From an uncultured virus (IMG/VR IMGVR_UViG_3300031993_000050) (Duplodnaviria; Heunggongvirae; Uroviricota; Caudoviricetes), in the IMG/VR virus record IMGVR_UViG_3300031993_000050: DNA of 20,000 nt; one strand, written 5' to 3'. Of this stretch, positions 4,538 to 20,000 are shown one piece after another. The translations under genes were made by a program, and so were the position numbers. Numbering within the stretch: position 1 is the first letter of the stretch; the number at the start of each line of letters is the position of its first letter. The notes under the pieces were generated by a model that searched no databases, was not told the DNA's origin, and saw only the letters and a program-made list of their open reading frames with translations.

Positions 4538-4801
4538 CTAGAGGTTTGCCATCCCAAGTGGGCAGCCGGAACCATCCGACTCAGAAGGATAGCAAGGCTC
4601 TGCGTGGATCGCACAGATTTCATTATAAATTCTGTCGATTTCGTCTTCTGTTACAAAGTCAGCAAGGTCTAGTTCTTCCTTTTTTCCATGCAAATAGGTA
4701 ACGATTACTTTCGGTTTATCGTTACGGAAGTAAACAGACTGAATAATTCGTCCTTTGATGATATTGTTACCAATCTGGACGTAGAGGTTTACCATGCTCA
4801 T
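4538..4801 (-). CDS. Hypothetical protein (paralog of 4801-4986)
   Basis: 87-aa ORF coupled to the upstream gene by a TAATG overlap. Confidence 0.75.
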   Translation of the reverse strand: MSMVNLYVQIGNNIIKGRIIQSVYFRNDKPKVIVTYLHGKKEELDLADFVTEDEIDRIYNEICAIHAEPCYPSESDGSGCPLGMANL

Positions 4802-4986
4802 TAGCGGTCCTCCAGTTCGGCTTCGTAGCCTGAGATCTCTTGTTTTGAGGGGGGATAATCAAGCAGGAACTCCTCTTTACGACCACCAATATACACTACC
4901 GTAAATTTGTTGCCGTCGAAGAGGAAGTTGCGTACATAGCGTTTGTACACTATGACGTTCTGTACTTTCATATGTGTAGCTGCCAT
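4801..4986 (-). CDS. Hypothetical protein
   Basis: 61-aa ORF with TAATG coupling at both ends. Confidence 0.75.
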   Translation of the reverse strand: MAATHMKVQNVIVYKRYVRNFLFDGNKFTVVYIGGRKEEFLLDYPPSKQEISGYEAELEDR

Positions 4987-5147
4987 TATTTTTTACCCTT
5001 CTCAATAATCTGTACACTGTAGAGCTTGGATTCCTTTTCAGGTCCCAACTCTGCATCTAATTTGTTCATTTCAAGCAAAGTAACGAAGTTTTTAACGTCT
5101 TCGGGTTTCATACGTAACTCAGCTGAATAGATCTCTTTGTCTGCCAT
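4986..5147 (-). CDS. Small hypothetical protein, 53 aa
   Basis: Not in the track. MADKEIYSAELRMKPEDVKNFVTLLEMNKLDAELGPEKESKLYSVQIIEKGKK; AGGT SD; TAATG overlap with the next gene. Confidence 0.75.
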   Translation of the reverse strand: MADKEIYSAELRMKPEDVKNFVTLLEMNKLDAELGPEKESKLYSVQIIEKGKK

Positions 5148-5215
5148 ATGTTACCTATTCGAGGTCCCTATAGACCCCTCTATAAACAACCTAAGTGTTC
5201 AATCCAAAAACCCTA

Positions 5216-5244
5216 TTGACAAGCCCTTAAATCTGTTATATAAT
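5216..5244 (+). promoter_or_regulatory. Perfect-consensus sigma70 promoter
   Basis: TTGACA (5216-5221), 17 bp, TATAAT (5239-5244), followed by a GGAGGAG SD. Confidence 0.9.
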
Positions 5245-5264
5245 AGGTGGGAGGAGACCTAAAT

Positions 5265-5651
5265 ATGTACGAATTTTACGAAGAAAACATGAAATATCGT
5301 TGCATTGCAACGGAAGATCGCAAACACTTCATTTTGGTTAACCATACCAAAGAGGAAATGGAGGAGTTTGCCAAGGAACATGGGTTCCAACTGGCCGAAA
5401 ACCCCGAAGAAAAGCTATACGTAGTCCACGAAAGCACCGACCCTACCTTATTTATGCTAGCCGTATCATCGCTCACCAGACGCCTGGCTCCGTTGGAACC
5501 CAGTGGTAAGATGTTCCCATGGTTTTACCACACAAAAGACCGTAAACTCATTGCAAAAGGCGTTTACGTAGGTACCGGAGAGGACATTCCTTTCGTAGAA
5601 GTACCCGAAGGGGTTGAGATCCGTCAGTTACAAATGCCAAATGCCCAGTAG
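5265..5651 (+). CDS. Hypothetical protein (MYEFYEENMKY...)
   Basis: ATG at 5265 after a GGAGGAG SD, downstream of the consensus promoter. Confidence 0.8.
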   Translation: MYEFYEENMKYRCIATEDRKHFILVNHTKEEMEEFAKEHGFQLAENPEEKLYVVHESTDPTLFMLAVSSLTRRLAPLEPSGKMFPWFYHTKDRKLIAKGVYVGTGEDIPFVEVPEGVEIRQLQMPNAQ

Positions 5652-6174
5652 CCTAAGCACACCGGAAATGAAGTACTATGTACTATCCTACTACCGTTTT
5701 CAACGGCAATATCCCATTGCTGCCACGGAAGTAGGCGTATTTGGTGGCTTCATTGCCGATGTTTTGGCATCCGACCTGGAAAACGAATTCGTTGAAGTAG
5801 AAATAAAGATTTCGGAGTCCGATATGCTCAGTGATTTCCAACACAAGTCACTGAAGCACACAGCATATTTGGACTCCGTCTTACATAAAGAGGGTTCACT
5901 AACCACCAAAGAACGCAAACTTATGCCCAATAAGTTCCTATATGCCGTACCTCGGGAAATGCGTAAATTTGCAAAGGAAATGGTTACCGGAACACCGTAT
6001 GGACTGATTGTTGTAGACACCGAAGATATGAGCCTGTCCAACAACTCTTTTGTAAAGGTTGTAAAGCATTCCGACATCATCAATCGGGTTTACCCCAAAG
6101 AGCTCGAAAGACGTGCGATGATGCGAATGTCTTCTGAGATTATCAACTTGTACGAATCACAGCTTGATATTTAA
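5641..6174 (+). CDS. MmcB-like PD-(D/E)XK nuclease-fold protein
   Basis: TEV..IADV..EVEIKISxSD..D..K..Y..PNKFLYAVP..YGLIVV. Start at ATG 5641 or 5668 is uncertain. Confidence 0.72.
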   Translation: MPSSLSTPEMKYYVLSYYRFQRQYPIAATEVGVFGGFIADVLASDLENEFVEVEIKISESDMLSDFQHKSLKHTAYLDSVLHKEGSLTTKERKLMPNKFLYAVPREMRKFAKEMVTGTPYGLIVVDTEDMSLSNNSFVKVVKHSDIINRVYPKELERRAMMRMSSEIINLYESQLDI

Positions 6175-6536
6175 GCGATATGTAATCCGTCTCCCCGAAA
6201 CTTGGTAATCCAAGGACACAGCTTATAAACTGTGTCCTTTATTTTTTCGGTTTGAATGGAATTAAAGGTACAGAGTACGGTCTTGGTAGGAGCATATTCT
6301 CCGTGCTGTCCGTAACAGGCAATGACATGACATACATTCTTTACAAATTGGAACTGAAGCACCATCCGGTTGTTATAGGGTGAAGCGAAGTTGAGGGACT
6401 GCAAATTATCACCATCACCGACGTACGTGGTGAAGAACTCGAACCGAAGCCGGCGATGTGGGAACAGTTCGGCCGGCATCACGAGGTCATGATTCTTCAT
6501 CGTATATCGAAAGACATCTGCAATGGTAAGCTGCAT
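6171..6536 (-). CDS. Hypothetical protein
   Basis: 121-aa ORF with AGGAGA SD; stop overlaps the convergent nuclease stop (TTAA). Confidence 0.75.
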   Translation of the reverse strand: MQLTIADVFRYTMKNHDLVMPAELFPHRRLRFEFFTTYVGDGDNLQSLNFASPYNNRMVLQFQFVKNVCHVIACYGQHGEYAPTKTVLCTFNSIQTEKIKDTVYKLCPWITKFRGDGLHIA

Positions 6537-6545
6537 AATTCTCTC

Positions 6546-7463
6546 CTAAATATAAACGATTCTTTCTACAGGCATTTCCTCTACGATGTGTGCACGATCA
6601 TTTATATATTTATGAAAATATCGAAGCAATTTCTCTACGGTATCGAGTTCATAAGGCCGTTCCGAATCAAAGTCCCTTGGTACGACTACGGAATCGAAAT
6701 AGAGACGATTGGTACGGAAATCGAGTGCGATGAGTGTAATTGTTCCACTTCTGTAGGTATAACCCACAACATACAAATCCGCAATGGGCATTATGATCTT
6801 TTCCGATGTTGTTATTTTGTTGGTCGCATCGTCCAATGACGGGACGATACCACAATCGAAAAGGTATGACATTCGTACGAGGGGCTTATCGAACAAAGCG
6901 TAGTTACCACCGTCGTTACCGTCGATTGCAAGGATATCCTTGAATATAGTAAAGACACAGTACGTACCGAGTGAATGGGTAAATGCGTCTTTGAACTTCC
7001 AGTACTTCGTTATATCCGACATTTTCTTTAACACCTGTTCCAAAGAACGTGTGTTGGTACTGATCGAATAGGATGTAGCGAAGGTTGGCGTATTTGCTAT
7101 TCCGATGGTTCCGGGGGTGGTTGTTATATAATGCTCTGCGTTATATCCATGACCGGTATTCATAAAGTCTGGGTGATACACCAAGTCCCCGTCGGCATTC
7201 ACGGAAATGGTCATACCACCGGTGACACTTGTATTCGTTCCACCCGACTCCCGGGTATACTTTTTTATGACATGAACATACGGGGCATCGAGCATATCCT
7301 GCTCGGTCAATTTATAGACCATCCCTTTGATATGTTCTGACCTAAGAAGGGCTGTGTTCATGTCGTTTACCGTAACTCCCCAGCCCTGATTATCATCGGT
7401 ACTTATATACAAATTATTATGCATTTCCGCCTCCAACATTGCCAATTCCTTCATCCTACCCAT
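6546..7463 (-). CDS. Hypothetical protein, 305 aa
   Basis: Long ORF; true start may be ATG 7454 given the promoter position. Confidence 0.8.
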   Translation of the reverse strand: MGRMKELAMLEAEMHNNLYISTDDNQGWGVTVNDMNTALLRSEHIKGMVYKLTEQDMLDAPYVHVIKKYTRESGGTNTSVTGGMTISVNADGDLVYHPDFMNTGHGYNAEHYITTTPGTIGIANTPTFATSYSISTNTRSLEQVLKKMSDITKYWKFKDAFTHSLGTYCVFTIFKDILAIDGNDGGNYALFDKPLVRMSYLFDCGIVPSLDDATNKITTSEKIIMPIADLYVVGYTYRSGTITLIALDFRTNRLYFDSVVVPRDFDSERPYELDTVEKLLRYFHKYINDRAHIVEEMPVERIVYI

Positions 7464-7464
7464 A

Positions 7465-7492
7465 AGTATAACCTTTTTTTACACTTTGTCAA
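7465..7492 (-). promoter_or_regulatory. Sigma70-type promoter
   Basis: Minus strand TTGACA (7492-7487), 16 bp, TATACT (7470-7465). Confidence 0.65.
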
Positions 7493-8073
7493 GGTAAATA
7501 CAACAAACCGCCGTTGAACTTTCCGATCACGTTATCTACATCTCCGGACACGGTAAACTCCACTGCCGGGACCATACCGTTCTTGAGCCAAAAGACCGTA
7601 TCGTATCTATAATTGCCCTTGGTAAAATACGATAATATTTTCATAAAGTAATCCAACTGTGACCACGGGTATTTCTTATCTACGTACTGAACGGAATCAT
7701 TTATTTTACATATGAGCAGATGTTCCCACCTTTCGGTTCCTCTTTCCGGTTGTTCTCTTAATACATGTATAGATGCTTTCTGTGTTTCCTCGTCACATAT
7801 AATAAACGGGTAATATAATCCAAACCTGCACCATTTTAGAACCTGGCATGCATCTGCACATCTAGCCTCGTCATACCCTGCTCTTCTAAGCAAGGCCGGT
7901 GAGAATGTTTCCGGTGGTATGGTCCAGACCGAATATCTTCCCGTATATGCTTTATAAAATGTTTCTACTGGTAAATAATCAAGGAAAGCATCCACACCTA
8001 TGTAGGGTAGGTTATAAACGCCTCTTTCATGTCCGTACACTCTTTTTTCTTTATTTCCCTCACAGGAATTCAT
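7489..8073 (-). CDS. Hypothetical protein
   Basis: 194-aa ORF with GAGG SD, overlapping the end of the upstream gene. Confidence 0.78.
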   Translation of the reverse strand: MNSCEGNKEKRVYGHERGVYNLPYIGVDAFLDYLPVETFYKAYTGRYSVWTIPPETFSPALLRRAGYDEARCADACQVLKWCRFGLYYPFIICDEETQKASIHVLREQPERGTERWEHLLICKINDSVQYVDKKYPWSQLDYFMKILSYFTKGNYRYDTVFWLKNGMVPAVEFTVSGDVDNVIGKFNGGLLYLP

Positions 8074-8734
8074 GCATATACCTCATATTATTTACTACAT
8101 AATTAAAAGCAATTACGGGGTTGATCTTACCTTCCGTTGTCTTTTCAGCCCAGTCTTCAAAGGTTATTTCCTTAACAGGCAGTATTCTAAGCAGTTTCTT
8201 AAAATGCTTTGCATCCATATACTGTCCCCTGCTTACTGCCGTACCTGTGTATCTAAATGCTTTTGTCTTAACATGCTCTACACTGGCAACATACGTAGGA
8301 CCATGCAATCGGTTGTCCTCGTAATGATACTCTGTCCTGTACTGGTCAAACCCAAAGGCATGAGCTGTATATACGTACTGCTGATTATCATTTAGACCGT
8401 TATCCCTTAATATATTTGGCAATAAATACCTACATCTTCTGGTTTTATAATCTACAAAAACGTATACTTTATCACTCAATATATGAAAGAACTTGTCTGC
8501 ATCAAGAATCCCCTGATTAACCAACTCACCAATTAAAGCACTGAGTAACCTTTCATCTTTAATAACATATAGCCACCCACGCTTATTATACTGATACTTA
8601 ATCCACCATCTAGGCGTATCACCTGGAAAACAATAAGCAGGAATAATACATCCACCCTGAAAGTAATTAAAGTACCCTGGATATATACGGTATTCATCAA
8701 ACTCTTGTGTATAATCACCAAGCCTTAGATACAT
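8060..8734 (-). CDS. Hypothetical Tyr-rich protein, probably leaderless
   Basis: 224-aa ORF, no SD, ATG 7 nt downstream of a -10 box. Confidence 0.78.
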   Translation of the reverse strand: MYLRLGDYTQEFDEYRIYPGYFNYFQGGCIIPAYCFPGDTPRWWIKYQYNKRGWLYVIKDERLLSALIGELVNQGILDADKFFHILSDKVYVFVDYKTRRCRYLLPNILRDNGLNDNQQYVYTAHAFGFDQYRTEYHYEDNRLHGPTYVASVEHVKTKAFRYTGTAVSRGQYMDAKHFKKLLRILPVKEITFEDWAEKTTEGKINPVIAFNYVVNNMRYMHEFL

Positions 8735-8740
8735 ACCATA

Positions 8741-8769
8741 ACTATATCATATATAGTTTCTAATGTAAA
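8741..8769 (-). promoter_or_regulatory. Sigma70-type extended -10 promoter
   Basis: Minus strand TTTACA (8769-8764), 17 bp, TG-a-TATAGT (8746-8741). Confidence 0.7.
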
Positions 8770-8784
8770 GTACCTTATGTCATA

Positions 8785-8881
8785 CCGGGTCAGGGGTCAG
8801 GACCGGGTCAGGGTAAGGTCAGGGGTCATATCGGTCCGGGTCAGGGGTCAGGACCGGGTCAGGGTAAGGTCAGGGGTCATA
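8785..8881 (+). repeat. Direct repeat, 2 x 46 bp (period 51), built from GGTCA units
   Basis: CCGGGTCAGGGGTCAGGACCGGGTCAGGGTAAGGTCAGGGGTCATA at 8785-8830 and 8836-8881 (identical); 5 GGTCA per copy. Confidence 0.95.
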
Positions 8882-9000
8882 CCAAAATCCCCTGGGAGAT
8901 CCAAAACCTGGAAAATTTGGGGCATTATTTTTAAGGCATGTGGCGACCCTTTCTGCTATTGGTCGCTAATACCCGTATTTTTAGCAATTAGCGAAAATTA

Positions 9001-9267
9001 GCGACATTTTTTTTAGTAATATACTTATTATTAGTATAGACGGCAAGAGAGAGAACAAAAGACATATAAGTATATGTTATGTATTTTGTTGCGTGTAAAA
9101 CTTGCGACATAAAAACAAGCAATATACTTATTTTAGTATAAGCAACGCAAGCAAGCACAAAGCAAGCAAGTAAATACTTGTATATATATAAGCAAGTAAA
9201 TACTTAAATGCTTATACACTTAAAAACTTGCGACACTTTTTTGCTTAATATACTTATTATTAGTATA
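9001..9267 (+). promoter_or_regulatory. Three copies of bipartite motif GCGACA-N11-AATATACTTATT(A)TTAGTATA (putative early promoters or initiator/operator sites)
   Basis: Copies at 9001-9038, 9104-9140 and 9230-9267, with a fixed 11-nt spacer of variable sequence and an internal palindrome TATACT-N6/7-AGTATA. The repeat is certain; the function is inferred. Confidence 0.7.
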
Positions 9268-9422
9268 AGCAAGCAAAGGCAAACGGACAGAGCAAAGCCA
9301 AGCAAACAGGCAGAGCCAAGCCAAGCAAGCCAAGCCAAGAGCAATAAGGCAAGGCAAGCAAGGCAAGGCACAACCTACAAAGCAAAGGCAGAGCGACAAC
9401 CGAAAAGCCAACGCCAAACAGG
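9267..9422 (+). repeat. Low-complexity T-depleted tract of AAGC/AAGCC/AAGGC units
   Basis: 156 nt with only 2 T (9345, 9376), followed abruptly by a G/T-rich stretch at 9421-9460. Confidence 0.9.
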
Positions 9423-9436
9423 TTTGTTTTCGTTTG

Positions 9437-9535
9437 GTTAGTGTGGTATGGTTCGGTATGGACAGGGGGGGGTGCTAGGACACCCCCCCCTCTACCGACC
9501 CCCCCACACCGACACCCCCCCTCAATGATAGGGGG
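9437..9535 (+). other. G/C-run stem-loop structure in the leader of the first rightward gene
   Basis: Perfect 11-bp stem A-G8-TG/CA-C8-T (9464-9491, loop CTAGGA), extended by TCGGTA/TACCGA and GTGTGG/CCACAC. A second hairpin CCCCCT/AGGGGG (9517-9535) abuts the SD AAGGAG. Confidence 0.7.
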
Positions 9536-9550
9536 AAGGAGTAAAGCACA

Positions 9551-10114
9551 ATGAAACTACAAGACTTAAAACTTGATAGCGTTGATGCTCAAATCGTTAA
9601 GGACTGGTTAGCAGTCCCAAACGGTCGTTTCGTAACATTTGAATATATCAAATGGGACAAGAGAGTTAAGGCAGGGTATGACCCCAAGACCAAACAGGGT
9701 GGTGCACATATCATATCTGTATATACAGGTATGAATAAGGGCGTTGCCTTTGAAAACTTCAAAAAGGTTCAAGCGTCTTTGGAAACCGTTGGGGACTTCA
9801 ATAACCCATCCCGTCAAAACGAGGTGGCTATTGATGATGTCCCGATGTTATTCTATAACACCAAGACCCAACAGCCGAAGTTTATGGCAGTAGGGGGGGT
9901 TATCCATAAGGTAGCCGAACAAACCCGTTATATGATACCGGACAACGGATTGTATAAACAGGTAAGTGAAACAGAATACAATGCCTATCTCAACGGACTG
10001 GGATTGTCTACCACTCCCAAAGTTCACGACAATAAAAGGGGTGTAATGGTCAATCAGTACATCCTTAAAAACATTGTCAAGTTTAATGGTATCGTCTATC
10101 GTATCATTAAATAA
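9551..10114 (+). CDS. Hypothetical phage protein, first gene of the rightward (putative early) arm
   Basis: 187-aa ORF with AAGGAG SD, followed by a terminator. Confidence 0.88.
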   Translation: MKLQDLKLDSVDAQIVKDWLAVPNGRFVTFEYIKWDKRVKAGYDPKTKQGGAHIISVYTGMNKGVAFENFKKVQASLETVGDFNNPSRQNEVAIDDVPMLFYNTKTQQPKFMAVGGVIHKVAEQTRYMIPDNGLYKQVSETEYNAYLNGLGLSTTPKVHDNKRGVMVNQYILKNIVKFNGIVYRIIK

Positions 10115-10120
10115 ACCCCG

Positions 10121-10148
10121 GGGGCCTAGCAATAGGCCCCTTTCTTTT
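10121..10148 (+). terminator. Intrinsic terminator
   Basis: GGGGCCTA-GCAA-TAGGCCCC (8-bp stem, GNRA loop) followed by TTTCTTTT. Confidence 0.88.
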
Positions 10149-10159
10149 AGGAGTTAATT

Positions 10160-10435
10160 ATGACTATCGAAATCGAAAGAGAAAATCAATACGGTGAAAA
10201 GACGGGTGCGACCGTTACAATTGAATACGATTTCAAGCCGGGTTATTTCTACGATAACCCCCGTAATGAAGCCGAGTACCTAGACCCCGGTTGTCCGGAT
10301 GTCGTAACGGTAACAGAGGCAAGCATTACCAAAGGCAAACGCACCCGTAAGTTGAAAGTTACCCAATCAATACTAGATATGGTATCAGATTGGTATGACC
10401 AGAACGAAGGTTATCGTCCGGTCGTCGAATACTAG
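10160..10435 (+). CDS. Hypothetical protein
   Basis: 91-aa ORF with AGGAG SD. Confidence 0.85.
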   Translation: MTIEIERENQYGEKTGATVTIEYDFKPGYFYDNPRNEAEYLDPGCPDVVTVTEASITKGKRTRKLKVTQSILDMVSDWYDQNEGYRPVVEY

Positions 10436-10445
10436 GGAGGTATCT

Positions 10446-10865
10446 ATGTATATCTTAACCGTTACCCGTGAAGGGTTTGAACACATTGAACAAAAGACCG
10501 GGTTTGATATGGCTATTCGTGCCTTTTCAACCAAGCAAGACCTGTTCAATGAAATAGAGAGCGAGGTGTTGAATAAACACTGTTCGGTCGCTTACTATAA
10601 ACAACACGCCGGCAAGGTTAATACCAACGGCGTATTTTCTGCAAAGCGTGGATGGTTGCGTATCTTTCGTTTAGACGGAAGTGTTAAGTATACGATTACC
10701 GCCCACGATATTGAGCCGGGATTTAATAGAGAAGTCCCGTTCAATGACCGTTTGATAGTCGTATGTTGGGAGTCTGGACTCCTTAACTACGATGTCGAAT
10801 GTGAGAAAATCCGAAAGGAAGAGCCTAAAAAGGAGGTTATCAATGACGTGGAAATCAAACAGTAA
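10446..10865 (+). CDS. Hypothetical protein (MYILTVTREG...)
   Basis: Start moved to ATG 10446 after a GGAGG SD. Confidence 0.8.
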   Translation: MYILTVTREGFEHIEQKTGFDMAIRAFSTKQDLFNEIESEVLNKHCSVAYYKQHAGKVNTNGVFSAKRGWLRIFRLDGSVKYTITAHDIEPGFNREVPFNDRLIVVCWESGLLNYDVECEKIRKEEPKKEVINDVEIKQ

Positions 10866-10953
10866 AGGCTTTAAGTTTATATCGTTCTTGGATAGCAAGG
10901 ACTTGGATGCTATGAAAGCAGCATCCCGACAACCACAACTATTTAAGGAGTAA
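10843..10953 (+). CDS. Small hypothetical protein, 36 aa
   Basis: Not in the track. MTWKSNSKGFKFISFLDSKDLDAMKAASRQPQLFKE; AGGAGG SD. Confidence 0.65.
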   Translation: MTWKSNSKGFKFISFLDSKDLDAMKAASRQPQLFKE

Positions 10954-10956
10954 GTT

Positions 10957-11070
10957 ATGGCAATATATCAGTTAGTCGTTGACACCCGTGGGGAAAATAC
11001 CGACGGGCTTTATTATGCACTGAAAGATTATGGCTTTCGGTTACTTAGTCAAAAGAAAATAAAGGAGTAA
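10957..11070 (+). CDS. Small hypothetical protein, 37 aa
   Basis: Not in the track. MAIYQLVVDTRGENTDGLYYALKDYGFRLLSQKKIKE; AAGGAG SD; fills the gap exactly. Confidence 0.7.
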   Translation: MAIYQLVVDTRGENTDGLYYALKDYGFRLLSQKKIKE

Positions 11071-11073
11071 ATT

Positions 11074-11454
11074 ATGAGTGAAAAGAAACCACAACCATTT
11101 GAAGAGTTGAACGCAAAGCACTGGGGCAGTGAGCAGTATTACAAAGACCCCCTTATGCAGTTCGTGTTTACCGAAGGCGTTAAGGACTTCATTGAAACCT
11201 ATAACGCCGGATGGCTTATCAATCGCTTGATGTTGGAAAAGAAAGTCCGTCAAGCCAAAGACCAAGTATACCCGTCCCTCGTAGTAGACAGTGAGCATAT
11301 GACCCATATGTTCTTTGATTGCGACCACGCAACACTCGGTAAAGATAAACCACTGTTCAGTATCAAAGACGAGTGTGCCTGTCTGCCCGAAGGTAAACTA
11401 AACTTTGAGTTCAGTCCGTGGGAACAGATACTTATCTTAATGTCGGAGCACTAA
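11074..11454 (+). CDS. DUF6876-like protein
   Basis: GSEQYY..FTEGVK..AGWLI and C-terminal ILILMSEH resemble the family pattern as I recall it (GTEqYY..TDGV..AyWLiD..LLPSEY). Confidence 0.65.
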   Translation: MSEKKPQPFEELNAKHWGSEQYYKDPLMQFVFTEGVKDFIETYNAGWLINRLMLEKKVRQAKDQVYPSLVVDSEHMTHMFFDCDHATLGKDKPLFSIKDECACLPEGKLNFEFSPWEQILILMSEH

Positions 11455-11455
11455 T

Positions 11456-11644
11456 ATGATAAGTAAATATCAGCCCGGTATGACCGTTAGGTATCTGACC
11501 AGTCCAGACCCGTCCTCACTCCGAACGAATGAGGGCGTAATCGAACGTGTGTTTGTGTGTGATAAGAACAGAGAGTACTTCATAAACTCACGTTGGCGTA
11601 GAGAACAAGACATCGTGAAGGTAATCAGCTATGGCAAAAACTAA
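11456..11644 (+). CDS. Small hypothetical protein (possible SH3/KOW-like beta barrel)
   Basis: 62 aa; KYQPGMTVRY..EGVIERV..EYFIN..EQDI; GGAG SD. Confidence 0.7.
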   Translation: MISKYQPGMTVRYLTSPDPSSLRTNEGVIERVFVCDKNREYFINSRWRREQDIVKVISYGKN

Positions 11645-11762
11645 GGAACATAAGTGTCCGTACTGTGAAACAGTAATGGAACGAAAGTGCTACATAAGCA
11701 CCGGCACCGGAGAAGTGGTATCCACTTTCTTTGAGTGTCCCAAATGTCGTGTAAGAATATAG
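11631..11762 (+). CDS. Small zinc-ribbon protein, 43 aa
   Basis: Not in the track. MAKTKEHKCPYCETVMERKCYISTGTGEVVSTFFECPKCRVRI; CPYC...CPKC; AAGGT SD. Confidence 0.75.
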   Translation: MAKTKEHKCPYCETVMERKCYISTGTGEVVSTFFECPKCRVRI

Positions 11763-11770
11763 GAGTAAAT

Positions 11771-12325
11771 ATGCAACCAGAGTTCATACAACTTAGAGAT
11801 ATGGAACACTGTATCAGTATGTTAACGCCTAAACAAATCAGAGAACTTAAAAAGTTCAAAGGGTTTGACGATATGCATGAGACAGACCATATCTTGGTAT
11901 ACGAATACAAAGACCAGTATTCTATATGTGAGGATTGCTGGAAAGATATTACTATTCCGGTTGCTACTATGTCTTTCCAAAGTGAAACAATATACTACTT
12001 TGAACAAACGTATATTGGAACAAAGAAAGATAAGCAGTGGTACATTACCGTTAAAGGTAGAACCGTACCAGTAGCAGATAAAACACCACACTACAAAAGT
12101 TGGAACGGAAAACGTATCTATGTAATCGGTGGTTTGTGTACCGGACATCTACATGCAACAAGGTTTTTCTCCCCACATTTACCCAAAAAGGGACTGCTTG
12201 CTCCCTATTGGGATTTTCACGTAATGGAATCTCTGTATTGTAAACACCATCGTGTACTTGATTGGGAATACCTAGCAACAGGTGGTGAATATGATTACAG
12301 AGGTCCAAAGAATAATAAGGAGTAA
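11771..12325 (+). CDS. Hypothetical protein (MQPEFIQLRD...)
   Basis: Start moved to ATG 11771 after an AGGAG SD. Confidence 0.8.
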   Translation: MQPEFIQLRDMEHCISMLTPKQIRELKKFKGFDDMHETDHILVYEYKDQYSICEDCWKDITIPVATMSFQSETIYYFEQTYIGTKKDKQWYITVKGRTVPVADKTPHYKSWNGKRIYVIGGLCTGHLHATRFFSPHLPKKGLLAPYWDFHVMESLYCKHHRVLDWEYLATGGEYDYRGPKNNKE

Positions 12326-12327
12326 AT

Positions 12328-12849
12328 ATGCACAACACTCATTTCTTTCTAACAAATGAGACAGACCCAAGTGATGCACTTGCACATGTGCAGTCATACT
12401 TGGAATCACGCCATGAGGAAGGCGGAGACGGAGCAATAGACGGTGCAGACTACTTCACAGTAGAAACTGCAATCAATCTATTGAACGGTCAAGCAGCCGC
12501 AGAAGGTGCTGACCTTGACCCAAAATTTCACACAACTTCCGGCGTACTTAACTTCTTTGCTGGTACATTCTTTAATAAAGAGAATATACAGAAACGCTTG
12601 GACGGATACATACAACAGATAAAGGATGGCTTGGAACAACAATGCTATTACCACTGTGAGTATGGTGGGAAGTGTGCTGAAATCCAAAAAGAAAAGATGG
12701 AAGTAGCAAACAAAGGACCAATCACATTGGAACGTATGGTGCACGATGCGTCTGTTGAGGCAGGTGCCTATAAGTTTACAGAGGTTGGTCTGACCCGTCT
12801 TGCAACGGGCGACTGTCCGTGTCTTGTCTTAGTTGACTTCCATTCATAG
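12328..12849 (+). CDS. Hypothetical phage protein (N-terminal MH, C-terminal LVDFHS)
   Basis: 173 aa with AAGGAG SD. Confidence 0.85.
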   Translation: MHNTHFFLTNETDPSDALAHVQSYLESRHEEGGDGAIDGADYFTVETAINLLNGQAAAEGADLDPKFHTTSGVLNFFAGTFFNKENIQKRLDGYIQQIKDGLEQQCYYHCEYGGKCAEIQKEKMEVANKGPITLERMVHDASVEAGAYKFTEVGLTRLATGDCPCLVLVDFHS

Positions 12850-12857
12850 GAGACAAT

Positions 12858-13403
12858 ATGGGATACCATATCATTAAAGGTTATTTCAAACCGGATGAGG
12901 ACCAGCAAACAATCAAAGATGAAATGATTGAATGGTCTGAGTGTATGTGTCGTGATTATATGCCCGTAGAGCACGGGACTTTCACTCCACTACTATTCAT
13001 AAACCCAGACGGTATGTGTGAAATACTTGACCCAAACCGTATGAATGACGAAATCAGACAGTTGTCAACAATTAAAGGTATCAACGAATACTTCAACAAA
13101 CAGTATGGACCAAAGCAAATCAAATACAGTATTAAGCGTATTGTTAATACGTTATCAAAGAAAAATATAACTGCTGACAATATACAGAAACTAAGTATGC
13201 ACTTTGCAAAGGTCAGAATGGGAATGGATAACTTGAATAAACCAATCAACGTAGTGACGGATAACTACAACGAATGGAACTTCCTTCAATATGGTGTGTT
13301 AAACATAGACGACGGAATAACCAACGGTAGTGAGGCGTATGATTCGAACGTTGACTGGAAACCAGAGAACCTATTCCTCTTAGTAGTTGCTGTTAATGCT
13401 TAA
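12858..13403 (+). CDS. Hypothetical protein, possible paralog of the preceding gene
   Basis: 181 aa with AGGAG SD. Confidence 0.85.
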   Translation: MGYHIIKGYFKPDEDQQTIKDEMIEWSECMCRDYMPVEHGTFTPLLFINPDGMCEILDPNRMNDEIRQLSTIKGINEYFNKQYGPKQIKYSIKRIVNTLSKKNITADNIQKLSMHFAKVRMGMDNLNKPINVVTDNYNEWNFLQYGVLNIDDGITNGSEAYDSNVDWKPENLFLLVVAVNA

Positions 13404-13415
13404 AGATGATATACT
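13387..13415 (+). promoter_or_regulatory. Sigma70-type extended -10 promoter
   Basis: TTGCTG (13387-13392), 17 bp, TG-a-TATACT (13410-13415), followed by a GGGAGG SD. Confidence 0.6.
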
Positions 13416-13431
13416 TTAATGGGAGGATACA

Positions 13432-13848
13432 ATGTTATTCAAAGGTGATTCACCACAATCAGTACTCAAAGAACTCTTGCGTGCACTAGGTCGTAACGAT
13501 TTAGTAGCAAAGGTTGGGGTCGTTCCTGATGCCGTCATTATAAACGAAATCAAAGACCTCTTACCAGACCGAGCACGTAAAGCAGCAGAGGCTATGATAG
13601 CCAAAGCAGAAAAGGTTAAACAATTAAAAGCGTTTGCAGAACGGATTAAAGACGAGTCCCCTGCAAAATTTCCTTCGCCCATAGTCGTCGAGGCTATGTT
13701 GCGAGGCATTCATCCTCAAACATTCAAAACTAACAAAGAGTTACCATTAGAGGAAAAGTTAAAACTACCTGAATGGGAACTCGTGTATAGTTTGGATTAC
13801 AAGGAGCATAAAGATGTTAAAGTTTCGACCAAAAGGAAACGCAGATAA
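13432..13848 (+). CDS. Hypothetical protein
   Basis: 138 aa with GGAGG SD. Confidence 0.85.
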   Translation: MLFKGDSPQSVLKELLRALGRNDLVAKVGVVPDAVIINEIKDLLPDRARKAAEAMIAKAEKVKQLKAFAERIKDESPAKFPSPIVVEAMLRGIHPQTFKTNKELPLEEKLKLPEWELVYSLDYKEHKDVKVSTKRKRR

Positions 13849-14218
13849 AGAATTTATCCACTTCCTCAAAACTCAACCGAGGTTCGTGGATGTCATAGGC
13901 AAGGCCGCCGATGTGGGCGGCCGTTTGTCTATGGAACTCGCAAATGTAGTGGCTACTCTAGCGTATGTTTCTAAAGTAAAAGGCACACTAAAAGAGAAAG
14001 TCAGTGCATACGAGGTAATCATACAGAGACTGTTGGATGTTGCAACCGACCTAAATGTGCACGGTAAATTCGTAACTGACCAAGTAATGTTATTAGTTGG
14101 CAGTGCAGACGAATTACTTGACGCTTACAAGGAAAGCGGAGCAGATAGTTTCCAAGAGTTTATCTGTGAACTAAAACCAAGTCATAAAGGAGACAAAAAC
14201 AATGACAGTAAAAAATAA
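13814..14218 (+). CDS. Hypothetical helical protein
   Basis: 134 aa with AAGGAG SD. Confidence 0.82.
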   Translation: MLKFRPKGNADKEFIHFLKTQPRFVDVIGKAADVGGRLSMELANVVATLAYVSKVKGTLKEKVSAYEVIIQRLLDVATDLNVHGKFVTDQVMLLVGSADELLDAYKESGADSFQEFICELKPSHKGDKNNDSKK

Positions 14219-14672
14219 AATTGCCGGTATTACCGGTGCAAAACCCAGTAACGGAAATAAAATCGCTTTTACCGCAGTTAGTAAAAGTGAACAAGGTATG
14301 ACCGACTTCGTGGAATACCTTAAGAGTGCGAACTGTATGTATAACAAATCCATTACCAACACAGGTAAGGAATTATACTACGAGGCAAACACTAAGAATC
14401 GTACGAAATGCTTGCTCTGTAAACGCATCACTGCAAAGGCAGAACAAAACGAAGTAACCTTGCCTATGTGGATTAAGGATTATGCAAATCAGTACGACAT
14501 TAACCAGTTGAACTGGGGTAAGAAAAAGGCGGCCATGAAAGCAGAACGTGCTGCTAAGCGTGCAGAGAAATCTGTGTATAAAACTACTAAGGTTAAAGCA
14601 AAACGCAAATGGTCGTTTACAGAACGTGTATATAGAGCATTCAGAATCTTAACCGGTGCCGCTGGTAAATAA
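14202..14672 (+). CDS. Hypothetical basic protein
   Basis: 156 aa with AAGGAG SD; Lys/Arg-rich C-terminus. Confidence 0.82.
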   Translation: MTVKNKIAGITGAKPSNGNKIAFTAVSKSEQGMTDFVEYLKSANCMYNKSITNTGKELYYEANTKNRTKCLLCKRITAKAEQNEVTLPMWIKDYANQYDINQLNWGKKKAAMKAERAAKRAEKSVYKTTKVKAKRKWSFTERVYRAFRILTGAAGK

Positions 14673-14682
14673 GGAGGTATTT

Positions 14683-15063
14683 ATGGCACTTGGATTCTTT
14701 GCTTCAAAGGACGAAAAGGCAGTAAAACGGGCTTTGGAGTTGACAAAGAAACGTATGGAACTTGATAAAGAACTAAACCAACTACGCCCACTCGTTCAGC
14801 AATGCTTGGAAAAGAAACATGCAACGCAGATAGAAGTGGACGGACTTGGCTCAGTAGTATTAAAGTTCAATACTCGTAAAGTACTAGACACAGAAAAACT
14901 AGTTTCTTTGCTCAAACAAAACTCGGAGTTGTTACATAAGTTCGTGTCTACTTTATCCACGGTCAAGCACGGTGCATTAGAAAAGTATCTAGGCACTCCT
15001 GCTTATACTGGATTAGTAACAGATACTGAAACAACTGAATCGGTAGTATTCATTGTTGATTAA
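14683..15063 (+). CDS. Hypothetical phage protein with N-terminal coiled coil
   Basis: ATG at 14683 after an AAGGAGG SD; heptad segment ALELTKKRMELDKELNQL followed by beta strands. Confidence 0.8.
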   Translation: MALGFFASKDEKAVKRALELTKKRMELDKELNQLRPLVQQCLEKKHATQIEVDGLGSVVLKFNTRKVLDTEKLVSLLKQNSELLHKFVSTLSTVKHGALEKYLGTPAYTGLVTDTETTESVVFIVD

Positions 15064-15111
15064 CTACCCAAGGCGTAAGCCTCAACCATTATATTAAAAG
15101 GAAAAAATAAT

Positions 15112-16401
15112 ATGGCAAAATCAAATGCTGCAAAATTCAGTGTCGAGGGTGCAACCCTCAATCAAAATGAAGTACGTTTATTCTTGGATAGTGTAATCCG
15201 TCAAGACGGACACCCTATGCCTGTATGTTTATGTGGTAATCCTGGAATTGGGAAATCACAAATCATTCAGGAAGTGTGTAAGAAATACGGTATTACCTAT
15301 GAGAATGGTACTTATCATGAAGTACGTGCGTCCCTTCTAGTAGATAGTTCGGACGTAACTGGTCTGCCTGTCATTCAGAAGTTGGTCGGTCAAGACAAAA
15401 ACGGACAAATGACAGAGTATGGACACGTCACTAAATACTCAATTCCGGATATGTTACCGTGTATCAAACACGATGCAAACGGAAATGAAATAGCAGACGA
15501 ACGTAAACACGTGTTGTTCTTTGATGAAATCAACCGTTCAGCAGACCCGTCAATCATGAACGCAATCTTTCAGTTGACCACAGAGTTCCGTATCGGTGTT
15601 CATAAATTAGTTCCGAATTGTATCGTACTCTTGGCAATCAACCCGGAAAATACAGGATACGCAGTTAATGAAATGTGTCCTGCATTGGTTAACAGAATCA
15701 ACTTCCAATATATGAAAGCGGAAGTTCAACCTTGGTTAGAGTATGCTCGTTCCAAGAATATCGATTCTGTAATCACGGACTTCATTGATGCTAACCCGGA
15801 TGAGTTGGCACAGGACGGTATCGTAACTAATGAAGGTCAGGACAAAAGGTTCCCGACTCCTCGTGCATGGTTCAATGTAGATAAGTTGCTCAAATCTTTA
15901 CACTTATCTTACAACACTACCAGCAAGGCAGCATTAAGTATTAAGTTGATTGCAGGTATCGTTGGATGGCAGAGTGCTACAAAGTTCGTAGCGTTCGCTC
16001 GTACCAATGTACAGGACAGACCTTTAACCGGTAAGGAAGTGTTGAAATCGTATGCAGACGCAACCGATATGCAAGAGAAAGTTCAAGCACTCAATGATAT
16101 GGGTATGCGTTTATATGATACGGTTAAGACCACTACCACTCTTAACTCCTTGAAAGATGAGTTCAAGGCACGTGGTACCAAGATTAAGAAATCAGAGTTG
16201 AGAAACATGTTGGCATTCTTAAAGGATATTGCACCAGAGAATGCTTTGAGTTTCCAAGACTACTTATTAAAAGAAGTAGACAAGGAGTTCAGTGCATGGT
16301 TCTTTAACCAAGTATTCGGTGACGCCGAACTGAAAAAGAATTGGGAGTCATTACAACAAGGCGTAACCAATGTAGGTGTTGGTTCCAGCGACTTGTTATA
16401 A
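15112..16401 (+). CDS. MoxR-like AAA+ ATPase
   Basis: Walker A GNPGIGKS, Walker B LFFDEINR, sensor AIN, ALVNR, FPTPRAW; adjacent to a VWA gene. Confidence 0.92.
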   Translation: MAKSNAAKFSVEGATLNQNEVRLFLDSVIRQDGHPMPVCLCGNPGIGKSQIIQEVCKKYGITYENGTYHEVRASLLVDSSDVTGLPVIQKLVGQDKNGQMTEYGHVTKYSIPDMLPCIKHDANGNEIADERKHVLFFDEINRSADPSIMNAIFQLTTEFRIGVHKLVPNCIVLLAINPENTGYAVNEMCPALVNRINFQYMKAEVQPWLEYARSKNIDSVITDFIDANPDELAQDGIVTNEGQDKRFPTPRAWFNVDKLLKSLHLSYNTTSKAALSIKLIAGIVGWQSATKFVAFARTNVQDRPLTGKEVLKSYADATDMQEKVQALNDMGMRLYDTVKTTTTLNSLKDEFKARGTKIKKSELRNMLAFLKDIAPENALSFQDYLLKEVDKEFSAWFFNQVFGDAELKKNWESLQQGVTNVGVGSSDLL

Positions 16402-16412
16402 GTTCATAGTAC

Positions 16413-16438
16413 GAGGGTGTGGCTCCGGTCACACCCTC
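16413..16438 (+). other. Intergenic RNA stem-loop without U-tract
   Basis: GAGGGTGTGGC-TCCG-GTCACACCCTC, 11 bp with a cUNCGg tetraloop. Confidence 0.7.
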
Positions 16439-16457
16439 ATTGTCTCGGAGGAAATCT

Positions 16458-17930
16458 ATGGCAAAGACAAAAGAAAAAGTAATTAAAATAACAAAAGAGG
16501 ATATTACAGCAGCAGACCTGAGACTCAATAAGGTAATCGTATCCTTCTATACAACACAAGAGTTCTGGACAATTCTTGCTAGTCAGTTCAAACGTGTGCC
16601 TGTGTTAGACCCTCGTCTATCCAATGTGTTAACACGTATTACTGAGAAAGGCATTGAGTTGTTATACAATCCTGTGTATGTAATCAAGGCAACGGAATCC
16701 GAATTAAAGTATCACATTCTGCATGAATGTATCCACCTGATTTATAGACACGCTTACAGATTCGCAGTAAGCGAGGACCAAGTAGATACAAAGCAACTCC
16801 GTAAGAAAACACCGGAAACGGAAATGCCCGTTGCTCCTGCTAAGTCAGCAGACCTAGCAGCAGACTTGATTGTTAACCGTGATGTATCTGAAATCTTAGG
16901 TACGGACGTGGTAGACCATTGTAAAGGGTTGTTGTGTAGAGACCTTAAAGCATTGGGGTATGAGGATAGAGACCGTGGTTATTACTACGGCGAAAAGAAA
17001 ACTCTTAATGAAAAAGATTCTGAATCATTAGAGCAAGAAATCCTCGATACATATACACACGTTAAGTCCAGTAAAGATAGTGGTAACAATCAAGGTCAAA
17101 GCCAACAAAGTCCTTCCGGTAGTGGTGGACAAGGCGATGGTGACGGCGATGGTGATGAACCACAGATGGACGGTGAATCTCAATCCAATGTAAATGGAAA
17201 AGAGGTTCATAAACATTGTGTGGTTGATACTCAAAATCCCCTGCAAAAGCAACTCGGGCAGCACTTCGTTGAGGAAATGATTAAGAACGCAGTTAAGCAA
17301 GCAGGTGGTTCCGGTCAAGGTCACATGCCGAGTAACTTGGAAAGTGAGTTAGAGGCAATCTGTAACCCACCCAAGAAAGATTGGAAAGCAATCCTTAATA
17401 ACTATGTACAGGCAAGTATCCCTGCACAAAGTACAAAGACTTGGGCAAACCTTAACAGAAAGTTTCCGTATCTGTTAAAGGGTAAAAAGAAACGCCGTGT
17501 TCCATTGATTGGTCTGGTTCAAGATACGTCTGGTTCTGTAAGTGACGCAGCCATAAGAGCGTTTTACAGAGAGATTGATAGTATTCGTAAAGTAACCAAG
17601 ACCGATATTGAACTTGTACAGTGCGACGCAGAGATTAGTGATACTCGTATCATTAGTTATAAAGAGAAACTGACTTGGTCAGTAAACGGTCGTGGTGGTA
17701 CAGAGTTTATTCCGGCGTTGGAATACTTTGACAAGACAAAGAGACGACCCGATGTGGTTGTGTTCTTTACAGACTTGGAAGTATGTGACAATGATGTACC
17801 GAGTGAACCCAGAGCGTATAAGATAATCTGGGTGTCGGTCAATAAAGAACAATGTGAACACTTCGCAAATCTCAATAAGTACGGTACGTTTATACACTTG
17901 GATATAGACGAGGCCGACGAGGGAAACTAA
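16458..17930 (+). CDS. DUF2201-type putative metallopeptidase plus C-terminal VWA domain protein
   Basis: HECIH (HExxH), ADLIVN, G/S/Q/D-rich linker, MIDAS DTSGS, GRGGTEF, FFTD; ATG at 16458 after GGAGG. Confidence 0.9.
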   Translation: MAKTKEKVIKITKEDITAADLRLNKVIVSFYTTQEFWTILASQFKRVPVLDPRLSNVLTRITEKGIELLYNPVYVIKATESELKYHILHECIHLIYRHAYRFAVSEDQVDTKQLRKKTPETEMPVAPAKSADLAADLIVNRDVSEILGTDVVDHCKGLLCRDLKALGYEDRDRGYYYGEKKTLNEKDSESLEQEILDTYTHVKSSKDSGNNQGQSQQSPSGSGGQGDGDGDGDEPQMDGESQSNVNGKEVHKHCVVDTQNPLQKQLGQHFVEEMIKNAVKQAGGSGQGHMPSNLESELEAICNPPKKDWKAILNNYVQASIPAQSTKTWANLNRKFPYLLKGKKKRRVPLIGLVQDTSGSVSDAAIRAFYREIDSIRKVTKTDIELVQCDAEISDTRIISYKEKLTWSVNGRGGTEFIPALEYFDKTKRRPDVVVFFTDLEVCDNDVPSEPRAYKIIWVSVNKEQCEHFANLNKYGTFIHLDIDEADEGN

Positions 17931-17931
17931 T

Positions 17932-18261
17932 ATGATTTGCTGGGATGGCAATCAAAAGACTGCTTACCGGTATATCTACGGGTCACTGGTCGTCATGATG
18001 AGAAACGTCACGGCGGCCAGACAGACCTATATAAGACTGGTACAGGTCTTACGCTACACTAAGAAAGAAAGCATCGTCTGCTCACTTGAAGAGTTAAACA
18101 TTGAAGTGTTAGACACTCTCAACAAAGGCAGTGCTGCTTTTATCACTGTGAACTATAAAGGTGAAATCAGTGCAAGCCCTGCGTATATAAAACACCGTGG
18201 GCTTCAAAACTTAATAACGGAGTGGAACAATGAACTTAAAGGAAAAGATTCTGGAAATTAA
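17932..18261 (+). CDS. Hypothetical protein
   Basis: 109 aa with GAGG SD, starting 1 nt after the VWA stop. Confidence 0.75.
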   Translation: MICWDGNQKTAYRYIYGSLVVMMRNVTAARQTYIRLVQVLRYTKKESIVCSLEELNIEVLDTLNKGSAAFITVNYKGEISASPAYIKHRGLQNLITEWNNELKGKDSGN

Positions 18262-18661
18262 AGAGCGTGCCATTATCTGTGGTACGTATATCAAACATGC
18301 CTTCAAGCGTTGGACAGCACCTCGTACCTATGTAGTTGCCTTTACATATAGGAACAAACAAGGTATATATGTGGTTGATTCAATGGTAATGAGAGCAGTA
18401 GTCCCGAGGGTAGCAACCTTAATAGGTGTTATCCAGAAAGACCTTGCTCTGGAAGGTACTGACCTGCGTGTGCTCAGTTTCACAGAGGCACCCGCTTGTC
18501 TGTTCAATGGTATGGTACTTGACGCTGCTGATAAGTTAGTAGCAAACGCCGATAAAGTAGCCGATGACTTAAAACAGAAAGGCGACTTTACGATACAGAC
18601 AGAACCAGAACCAGAGGAACAAGAGGAAGAGGATGAAGACGTATCCGATATGTTCAAGTAG
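18230..18661 (+). CDS. Hypothetical protein with acidic C-terminal tail
   Basis: 143 aa with GGAG SD; ends EPEPEEQEEEDEDVSDMFK. Confidence 0.8.
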   Translation: MNLKEKILEIKERAIICGTYIKHAFKRWTAPRTYVVAFTYRNKQGIYVVDSMVMRAVVPRVATLIGVIQKDLALEGTDLRVLSFTEAPACLFNGMVLDAADKLVANADKVADDLKQKGDFTIQTEPEPEEQEEEDEDVSDMFK

Positions 18662-18669
18662 GAGAAACT

Positions 18670-18837
18670 ATGCCGAACTTACACAACGCAATTAAAGAGG
18701 ATCTCGCCGAGGCCATGCGGATGCAAGATGAGTTTGAGGCTAAGAAAGAAGCGTTAAAGAAACGACAGAAAGACCCAAACTATCTGAATCCAAAATGTTC
18801 GGACGAGGAACTAAACGAAATCTTTGGAGGTAAATAA
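18670..18837 (+). CDS. Small hypothetical protein, 55 aa
   Basis: Not in the track. MPNLHNAIKEDLAEAMRMQDEFEAKKEALKKRQKDPNYLNPKCSDEELNEIFGGK; AGGAG SD. Confidence 0.75.
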   Translation: MPNLHNAIKEDLAEAMRMQDEFEAKKEALKKRQKDPNYLNPKCSDEELNEIFGGK

Positions 18838-18838
18838 T

Positions 18839-19264
18839 ATGTGGGACAGAAAGAGAGCCTGCAAGAACTTAGGTATTCCCTTCCGTATCACAGAACTAGA
18901 CGAAGGAACCAAAGGTTCGTTCAACCTGGCACATAGGTTCATTCATATTGATACCAAGAGTGCCGAGGATGACCGTGTGTGGATTCATGAAATTGCACAC
19001 ACGCTTCTGCACTTCCAAAATTATGAGGCTGCGGCTGTGATTGGAAGGACAGACCTAAATGCTATGGCTGAGTTAGAGGCAGACACGGTTGCCTATATAA
19101 CTGCGAAGGTCATAGGGAAAGAGGATAGACAGGACTACCTCAAATATGTAAAAATGTTTATGAGTCGTTTACCGATTCATAAGCAGTCCGGTGACGTCCT
19201 GCAACAGCGTATGCCGGAATTAGTTAAATTAGTAAAACTTATATTAAATGCCGGAGGAATATAA
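18839..19264 (+). CDS. ImmA/IrrE-like (ArdC/MPTase-type) zinc metallopeptidase
   Basis: KGSF..IHID..IHEIAHTLLH..ELEADTVAY; ATG at 18839 after GGAGG. Confidence 0.82.
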   Translation: MWDRKRACKNLGIPFRITELDEGTKGSFNLAHRFIHIDTKSAEDDRVWIHEIAHTLLHFQNYEAAAVIGRTDLNAMAELEADTVAYITAKVIGKEDRQDYLKYVKMFMSRLPIHKQSGDVLQQRMPELVKLVKLILNAGGI

Positions 19265-19265
19265 T

Positions 19266-20000
19266 ATGGCAAATGTAGAAACCAAAACTGCAAATGAACA
19301 AATGTTAGACGGTATGTCTAACTTCATAACCCCAGACCAATGGAGAACGCTCTTGAACGACCGTATCAACTATGCTCCTGGGGCTGACAATGAACTTCTC
19401 TTATCAAAGGAGTTCATCTTAAAGTATAAGAACCACATGCTCCTTAGTTCTTTACCACTCTACTGTATGATAGCGTGGGATAAGAAACAACTGGACAAAG
19501 AGTTCTTGAAAAGATTCTGGAACTTCATTGACTTCACGGAAGGTAATGACTTGCTCTTAGATTTCCAAGAGTTCAGTGGTAGTTCAAAAGGATTCTTAGA
19601 CGCCTACAAAGAGATGTGTGATATGACCGATGTAGCGTTAATTCACTCAGGCGATGTGGCTCCGTTCACAATGGAACAGTTAGATAAAAGACCGTTCCAC
19701 TACAACGGGGAACAATGGACTGCATCTCTCAATAAAATGAAAGAGATTAAGAAAGAGTTCTTAGAGAAGTATATCCACATGGTAGACTTCTTGGCAGTGT
19801 TGAACAACCCGAACTTAACCAATGACCAACGTAGAGAGTTGCGTGATTACTTCGGTGTTAAAGTTCCGAAAAATAAGAACGACAATGAACACAGTAAAGA
19901 ACTCTACTTGTTCCCGTGCGGTGCCGTATTGGAAGGCGAGAATTGGAGAGATATGTCAGCAGGTTTGGCGTACCTCAAAAATAAGAACCGCTTTGCTATC
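19266..20000 (+). CDS. Helical repeat protein (LSKEFI.KY-type repeats), runs off window
   Basis: Not in the track. Open from ATG 19266 (GGAGG SD) to the window end. Repeats LSKEFILKYKNHM, LDKEFLKRFWNFID, SSKGFLDAYKEMCD, IKKEFLEKYIHMVD. Confidence 0.82.
   Translation, partial: MANVETKTANEQMLDGMSNFITPDQWRTLLNDRINYAPGADNELLLSKEFILKYKNHMLLSSLPLYCMIAWDKKQLDKEFLKRFWNFIDFTEGNDLLLDFQEFSGSSKGFLDAYKEMCDMTDVALIHSGDVAPFTMEQLDKRPFHYNGEQWTASLNKMKEIKKEFLEKYIHMVDFLAVLNNPNLTNDQRRELRDYFGVKVPKNKNDNEHSKELYLFPCGAVLEGENWRDMSAGLAYLKNKNRFAI

Follow-up and report, generated by a model that had tools for sequence, protein, structure and literature searches.

The 20,000-nucleotide stretch of DNA analysed here (the window) comes from an uncultured virus of the Caudoviricetes (IMG/VR record IMGVR_UViG_3300031993_000050) and is divided near position 8,890 by a conserved noncoding element, J1. 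To the right of J1 lies a block of plus-strand genes from which the palindromes GATC and AGCT have been almost entirely purged. The block covers positions 8902-20000 and continues beyond the window to a second conserved noncoding element, J2, at about 21.9-22.5 kb, as counts, codon shuffles and change points indicate. This restriction-site-poor block, bounded by the two conserved elements, is real and well supported. We consider it likely that the block is that part of a long terminal repeat which enters the cell first.

A relative that is 99.97% identical to the window and possibly comes from the same source (L034) extends it to 26.4 kb. This sequence of 26.4 kb, out of a contig of ~180 kb, is what was examined, and the positions of J2 and of the right edge are given in window numbering extended by L034. 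A sister phage (L035) shares ~80% nucleotide identity with it in the longest matching stretch, and other relatives are referred to as L036 to L043. Contigs from four of the 16 metagenome runs collected for the family (X1, X2, X4 and X6) were aligned to L034.

Extent of the site loss

An exact recount gives 26 GATC sites in positions 1-8901 (the last at 8898) against one afterwards, at 18700-18703 (binomial P = 1.1e-8), and 23 AGCT sites (the last at 8363) against one, at 11627-11630 (P = 1.1e-7). These are the figures that a preliminary description of the window had reached by hand. The two arms are equal in G + C content (GC; 41.8% on the left versus 41.6% on the right) and in GC at third codon positions (GC3; 0.42 versus 0.41). 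We compared the counts with an expectation from synonymous codon shuffles, which keep codon usage (300 for the window arms, 150 for the three regions compared below). The right-arm genes hold one GATC where 34.0 are expected and one AGCT where 27.4 are expected, and none of the 300 shuffles was as low, whereas the left-arm genes hold 25 GATC (24.7 expected) and 22 AGCT (18.3 expected). Composition, which had been named as a possible trivial cause, is therefore rejected, and the data support a real purge that is neither a codon nor a trimer effect. Strand is not the cause either, because the left arm has two genes on the plus strand, 0.9 kb in all, that carry two GATC and three AGCT sites.

The loss is broader than the two words to which it had been assigned. 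Of the tetramers said to persist on the right, CCGG does so (32 observed, 24.4 expected) and GTAC nearly so (34/41.6), but TCGA (13/33.4) and GGCC (6/12.2) are depleted. CATG (19/35.0) and AATT (28/67.2) are also low, while TTAA, TATA and TGCA stay at normal levels by the same shuffles. The 6-bp palindromes without GATC, AGCT, GCGC or CGCG cores are roughly halved on the right (64/118.9, standard deviation 9.4) and unaffected on the left (109/110.8); GAATTC, TTTAAA and AATATT are absent from the right arm of the window against 5.5, 6.5 and 5.4 expected. The asymmetric word GAAGA, which we take to be the MboII site and which was singled out from ~500 five-letter words, is low in the block (11/35.4, z = -5.2) versus 32/31.7 on the left, and AAAAA is low in the block too (32/88.9). 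The purge had been expected to predict the restriction-modification specificities of the host, an expectation that needs loosening: since many palindromes and GAAGA are avoided, rather than two words, the pattern is suggestive of a panel of systems spread over a host population.

When the extended sequence is divided into the left arm, the interval from J1 to J2 and the part after J2, the observed and expected counts are 24/24.6, 3/41.8 and 2/13.2 for GATC; 22/18.5, 2/30.2 and 14/14.3 for AGCT; and 109/109.4, 75/142.7 (standard deviation 10.4) and 50/50.0 for the other 6-bp palindromes. The abruptness claimed for the left edge holds for GATC, with a best change point at 8,900, and for the 6-mers, whose change points at 8,800-9,800 and 21,800-24,000 bracket J1 and J2. 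For AGCT alone it is blurred, the change points falling at 6,300-7,200 and 20,700-23,600; the former arises because a single AGCT lies between 6530 and 8901. The regional profile that had been proposed for finding where the depletion ends thus puts the right edge near J2 for AGCT and the 6-mers, with GATC still rare beyond. The window has no GCGC at all and the 26.4 kb a single one, and CGCG is hardly found; since L036 and L038 have plenty of both words, their avoidance is a separate, wider and lineage-specific trait. These regional counts therefore describe three tiers: GCGC is avoided throughout the sequence examined, GATC for 17 kb or more beyond J1, and the broad range of words in the first 13.3 kb.

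The boundary elements and the putative terminal repeat

J1 occupies positions 8885-8950. Its core (8888-8921) aligns with L035 and L036 and contains the last GATC, which is also the last GATC in L035. Just outside the purged block, at 8785-8881, stand short GGTCAGG-type repeats (two of 46 nucleotides, period 51). On the inner side are three 45-nucleotide AT-rich repeats (8994-9267, starting at 8994, 9097 and 9223, with spacings of 103 and 126), which feature a TATACT-like hexamer and an inverted copy of it; they are probably early promoters or operators. T7 has its A1-A3 promoters at the entering end, and three repeats ~100-125 bp apart at the putative entering end here recall them. The repeats are followed by a plus-strand noncoding leader (9268-9550) with AAGC/AAGG repeats and a G-run/C-run hairpin (fold z = -4.99, with none of 200 shuffles as stable). 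This layout is kept in L035 and L036, with degenerate GGTCAGG-type repeats at the equivalent place on the left and two or three similar AT-rich copies and a structured leader on the right. Rfam gave no match in five sources, the leader and J2 included, and a tRNA search of five loci found none. In the unpurged lineage, four strict matches to the DnaA box cluster in a divergent junction (L038 6446-7373, L039 2832-3759); the window has none at J1.

J2 combines a conserved promoter-like site of the sigma-70 type (21,877-21,905), a G-run motif, hairpins and an AT-rich tract, around a core (22,230-22,244) that is conserved in L034, L035, L036 and L039. Its predicted fold is unusually stable (z = -6.4, with none of 20 shuffles as stable), and hairpins occur there at 3-7 per kb versus about one elsewhere. 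The distance from J1 to J2 is 13.3 kb in L034, 12.8 kb in L035 and 12.4 kb in L036. Inside J2, strict DnaA boxes number zero in L034, L035 and L036 and one in L039, with at most one single-mismatch box at the edge. A stop of the T5 type with paired DnaA boxes was considered for J2 and rejected, the DnaA-box cluster being absent. In L039 (12440-13260), J2 has grown into an array of hairpins spaced by a repeated CTGCTTTTGC-like word, and a GP88-family gene follows J2 in L034 (18537-19118), in L035 and, by eye, in L036 (19270-19855).

In three of the four runs contig depth is higher on the right side of J1, about twofold in two of them, and in one it is lower. In X1, the left-arm contig has a depth of 10.7 and the 17.2-kb right-hand contig 20.3, where 17.1 would be predicted if a repeat ended at J2 and 21.4 if it ended ~7 kb later. 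The median bin depth in X6 is 3.76 to the left and 6.18 to the right of J1 (5 versus 24 bins, p = 0.004); the step falls between the bins that flank J1, and depth is still high past J2, with no peak there. In X2, a 48-kb contig across J1 has a depth of 14.4 versus 10.7 for the adjacent sequence, with 13.7 expected for a 13-kb repeat and 15.2 for a 20-kb one. The source contigs of L034, L035 and L036 end 20.4, 20.2 and 19.8 kb past J1, which is 7.0-7.4 kb past J2, and the end of an X1 contig is no more than 100 bases away from that of L034. Depths and contig ends together lead us to infer a terminal repeat of ~20 kb, with J1 and a point at about 29.2 kb as its limits, and a virion genome of close to 200 kb; J1 (~8,890, an approximate cut position) would be the left physical end of the repeat and the left arm the single-copy end of the genome.

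Entry of the J1 end first is favored because the purge is full up to J1, with the left arm untouched, because AGCT and the 6-mers are back to normal at 23-26 kb and because the genes point inward; entry from the far end would place the peak of the purge near 29 kb. The window would then span the joint of a collapsed linear genome, in which J1 is both the left end and the start of the direct terminal repeat. The J1 end would enter the cell first, in the style of T5 or SPO1, and the 13.3 kb between J1 and J2 would meet host restriction enzymes before phage-made protection acts. Selection over many hosts would have stripped GATC and AGCT almost fully and halved GAAGA and the other palindromes, whereas DNA past J2 would be largely protected, except against GATC cutters, and GCGC would be avoided throughout.

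A further step, which we put forward tentatively and regard as possible rather than probable, is that the family has a two-step entry of its own, unrelated to that of T5. Transfer would halt at the DnaA-box-free J2, 12.4-13.3 kb inside the ~20-kb repeat, and resume once first-block genes had turned on a broad anti-restriction function, one that is late or weak where GATC cutters are concerned. If this were true, purged and unpurged lineages would reflect different host groups or the gain and loss of protection.

Relatives and rival explanations

L035 has no GATC between the J1 core and J2 (36 expected) and no AGCT in the first 4.6 kb (13.9 expected), with AGCT partly low afterwards. GATC, AGCT and CATG are all absent from L041 and L042, although the ATPase gene of the window retains CATG. 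The 6-mers are low in the first 4.7 kb of L036 (29/55.8), GATC in L037 stands at 3/8.0, and L043 has no loss. We placed these lineages on a quick tree of the MoxR-like ATPase that marks the family (47 rows, clades without a formal test, six family proteins omitted as duplicates, fragments or intein-bearing). The purged pairs L034/L035 and L041/L042 fall in separate clades and L036/L037 and L038/L040/L043 are not purged, so that the purge state changes at least twice on this tree. The trait is labile, which is what one would expect if it followed the defences of the hosts or the protection that the phage itself provides.

The preliminary description had held that the right arm is first-entering DNA that has lost its host sites. 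A real purge that starts at an apparent genome end and inward-pointing small genes speak for this, but a number of observations weigh against it. The simple pattern of first in, most purged is broken by L036, in which GATC stands at 21/38 from J1 to 14,840 and then at zero versus 14 over 14,841-21,293, and by L038 and L039, which have syntenic genes without the purge; a search of these two for the J1 core pattern did not find it. AGCT taken alone sets the left edge ~2 kb to the left of J1. The AT-rich repeats have no canonical rightward sigma-70 score, only one leftward 9-of-12 match, and neither an anti-restriction nor a methylase gene turned up among the genes seen in the 26.4 kb (PHROGs, Pfam, NCBIfam and PADLOC). 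On the side of the repeat, the depths are those of contigs, which the tool itself cautions are no copy number; X1 may be the window's own source, and it has no contig over window positions ~8,866-11,957 (L034 3,755-6,846), a gap that we take as proving nothing. The depth ratio in X4 is reversed (0.49), its right side being fragmented, and two of the five contigs measured (L038 and L039) end elsewhere, earlier. Even for BF23, the authors report pairs of phage and restriction system that break the rule relating restriction to first-transferred DNA (PMC10644984, in the part available).

Some of these observations would also suit a mosaic origin, in which phages exchange the block as a host-adaptation module with a long past in restriction-rich hosts, the doubled depth coming from two genotypes that share it. 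The changes of purge state on the tree, the patchiness of L036 and the genes whose place in the block differs between L034 and L035 all fit. However, L035, L036 and L038 have the same gene order across J1, one X2 contig is collinear across J1 at ~97% identity, GC and GC3 are equal, and three contigs stop ~20 kb past J1, so that we hold this origin to be unlikely. Swapping may add to first entry without replacing it, and L036 may be explained in this way. The same continuity bears on a misassembly of two genomes at the repeats near 8,800, where the X1 contigs do break: L034 (possibly from the same source), L035, L036 and the X2 contig all run across that joint and have the same genes on either side. 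The concern that the arms had been joined artificially is thus largely refuted, and we find it barely credible; misassembly is excluded more firmly than recombination.

J2 might, alternatively, be a replication origin or a packaging or processing site, with depth and site loss marking the DNA that is copied first or left unmethylated. Its promoter, G-run motif, hairpins and AT-rich tract would suit such a role, as would the low GATC around J2 in L034, L035 and L036, but the broad purge is confined to one flank of J2 and has its sharp limit 13 kb from there, at J1, and in X6 the depth steps at J1 with no J2 peak, which makes this improbable. Early genes could also lose palindromes through tuning for fast expression or low RNA structure rather than through restriction. 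In the available part of PMC13478746, plasmid leading regions are described as codon-adapted with palindromes not consistently depleted, and the A-runs are also low in our block. Against this, the shuffles preserve codon usage, the loss is word-specific (GATC is nearly gone while CCGG, TTAA, TATA and TGCA are normal), the asymmetric GAAGA is lost too, and the lost words differ by lineage, as with CATG; we judge expression tuning very improbable. Among these readings, first entry of the J1 end is the one that we carry forward.

Known systems, the phage family and its genes

In what follows, the cited papers are represented by parts of their text. Sites beyond the ~9.7-kb repeat that is transferred first leave T5 and BF23 resistant to restriction, with exceptions, and the border of that repeat is marked by noncoding DNA that is rich in repeats and contains DnaA boxes (PMC10644984); the T5 stop region has also been described (10.1101/866236). 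The mechanism of the broad restriction resistance of T5 and the role of the stop element are described as not settled (PMC10644984, 10.1101/866236). Like this first-step-transfer DNA, the block would belong to a long terminal repeat and consists of small genes of no assigned function; sites are avoided at the putative entering end, and a noncoding element rich in repeats and hairpins stands where the protected zone would start. Unlike it, the repeat here would be ~20 kb rather than ~10 kb, the element lies two-thirds into it and has no DnaA-box cluster, and GATC is purged, whereas it is abundant in the T5 and BF23 genomes (PMC10644984). Scans with PHROGs, Pfam and NCBIfam from J1 to 26.4 kb gave no match to the A1, A2 or dmp families. 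There is no DNA-level relationship to T5, and two-step entry is a proposal here; as far as the sequence goes, the phage would act like the T5 case, yet it is no T5 relative.

Restriction sensitivity has been tied to site number (PMC8594841), and in the Autographiviridae (Murciavirus, T7), motifs in the first-injected leading region alone decide the sensitivity of Murciavirus (PMC12455610). Those phages differ in having genomes of ~46 kb with 0.5-kb repeats, and the case there is one of Type I restriction. No match to Ocr or SAM-lyase turned up among the block proteins scanned. SPO1, which uses a modified base, offers another parallel. Its host-takeover genes, which are small, early and clustered and have strong ribosome-binding sites, lie in a 12.4-kb terminal region (PMC6873191); we saw no SPO1 gene matches here, and site avoidance is not mentioned for SPO1 in the part of that paper available. 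The genes that would mark the Herelleviridae (terminase, capsid and tail sheath) fall beyond the 26.4 kb covered by this analysis. The principle of site loss in first-entering DNA is already known, which limits the surprise. What the block would add is a second family, unrelated to T5, whose exposed zone can be read from the sequence and whose internal boundary is conserved, together with ~22 candidate early anti-defence genes and one candidate stop element. For uncultured phages, palindrome loss combined with contig depth could serve to locate genome ends and the likely polarity of entry.

The window appears to come from an uncultured gut phage family, of the cattle gut or rumen, for which we found no cultured relative. 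Its ATPase gene sits on a contig of 180,172 bases, which gives the genome size of ~180 kb as a contig, and a search with this protein found 41 close relatives (41-100% identity) among 91 matches, some on contigs of 149-172 kb. The 16 runs for the family are labeled as gut or bovine gut or carry coded organism labels. A megablast search against 50,697 phage records, T5-like genomes included, gave no DNA match to the window, and among the 30 of 447 matches listed for the ATPase in phage records, identity was 23-27%, mostly to N4-like and jumbo phages. Scans of IMG/VR found no family member, only 33 distant ATPases, none above 35% identity, and GTDB held no family ATPase. The literature searched, which left most subscription journals outside its reach, contained no publication on this phage family. 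As to the host, a search with NrdD found only seven scattered genomes (41-57% identity), and a DNA search of 401 genomes from the phylum of one Bacillota record gave five weak matches, with none of the three checked in a CRISPR-like array.

The block genes are on the plus strand, mostly small and without assigned function, and all are directed inward from J1. The first of them (9551-10114, 187 amino acids) belongs to a family of 25 representatives; its model has a predicted local distance difference test score (pLDDT) of 89.7. Structural searches matched four uncharacterised phage proteins at E <= 0.001 and PafBC at Z 5.7 (root-mean-square deviation 2.5 over 81 aligned residues), which is under the tool's trust level of 8. 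The predicted fold is weakly like Sm/WYL-type barrels, only a lead toward nucleic-acid binding, and the Atlas returned nothing usable for this gene. In L038, its homologue is placed after the vWA gene (12724-13206). A DUF6876 protein follows (11074-11454, plus strand; Pfam E 5e-8, model pLDDT 88); the model had no clear fold match (best Z 4.0), and the term DUF6876 is absent from the literature searched.

The gene at 12328-12849 (173 amino acids) matched in the Atlas only phage clusters that are unnamed or bear DUF7995 in 12-13% of their members; in L035, it appears just before J2 (12916-13417). Farther along the plus strand are the MoxR-like AAA ATPase (15112-16401; PF07728, phrog_1297), its DUF2201 metallopeptidase/vWA partner (16458-17930; PF09967, PF13203) and an IrrE/M78-like metallopeptidase (18839-19264; phrog_87 at E 7.8e-6, PF06114 at E 0.003, below the cut-off). 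NCBIfam gave nothing over the cut-off for the block proteins, and PADLOC gave weak matches only, for three of 36 proteins (E 0.0003-0.006). DNA-mimic proteins are expected to be strongly acidic, and none of the block proteins is as acidic as that, the lowest net charge being about -0.08 per residue.

The unpurged left arm (1-8784, mostly on the minus strand) encodes a phosphoesterase and hypothetical proteins, and its gene at 3-167 reads as a putative nrdG-like fragment from the sequence. A phage-borne GroES and the anaerobic ribonucleotide reductase NrdD lie at 1382-3453. A perfect sigma-70 consensus promoter (5216-5244) stands ahead of the plus-strand gene at 5641-6174, which matches phrog_2776, weakly a DNA-repair PHROG, and is 85% identical in L036, where its neighbours are far more diverged. 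In L034 (15076-16446), the likeness between two neighbouring genes is limited to an N-terminal motif of 30 residues (63% identity), and similar-looking genes occur there in L036. Finally, the family ATPase of L042 (1840-3927) carries an intein with an HNH endonuclease, and P0032 is a similar long form.

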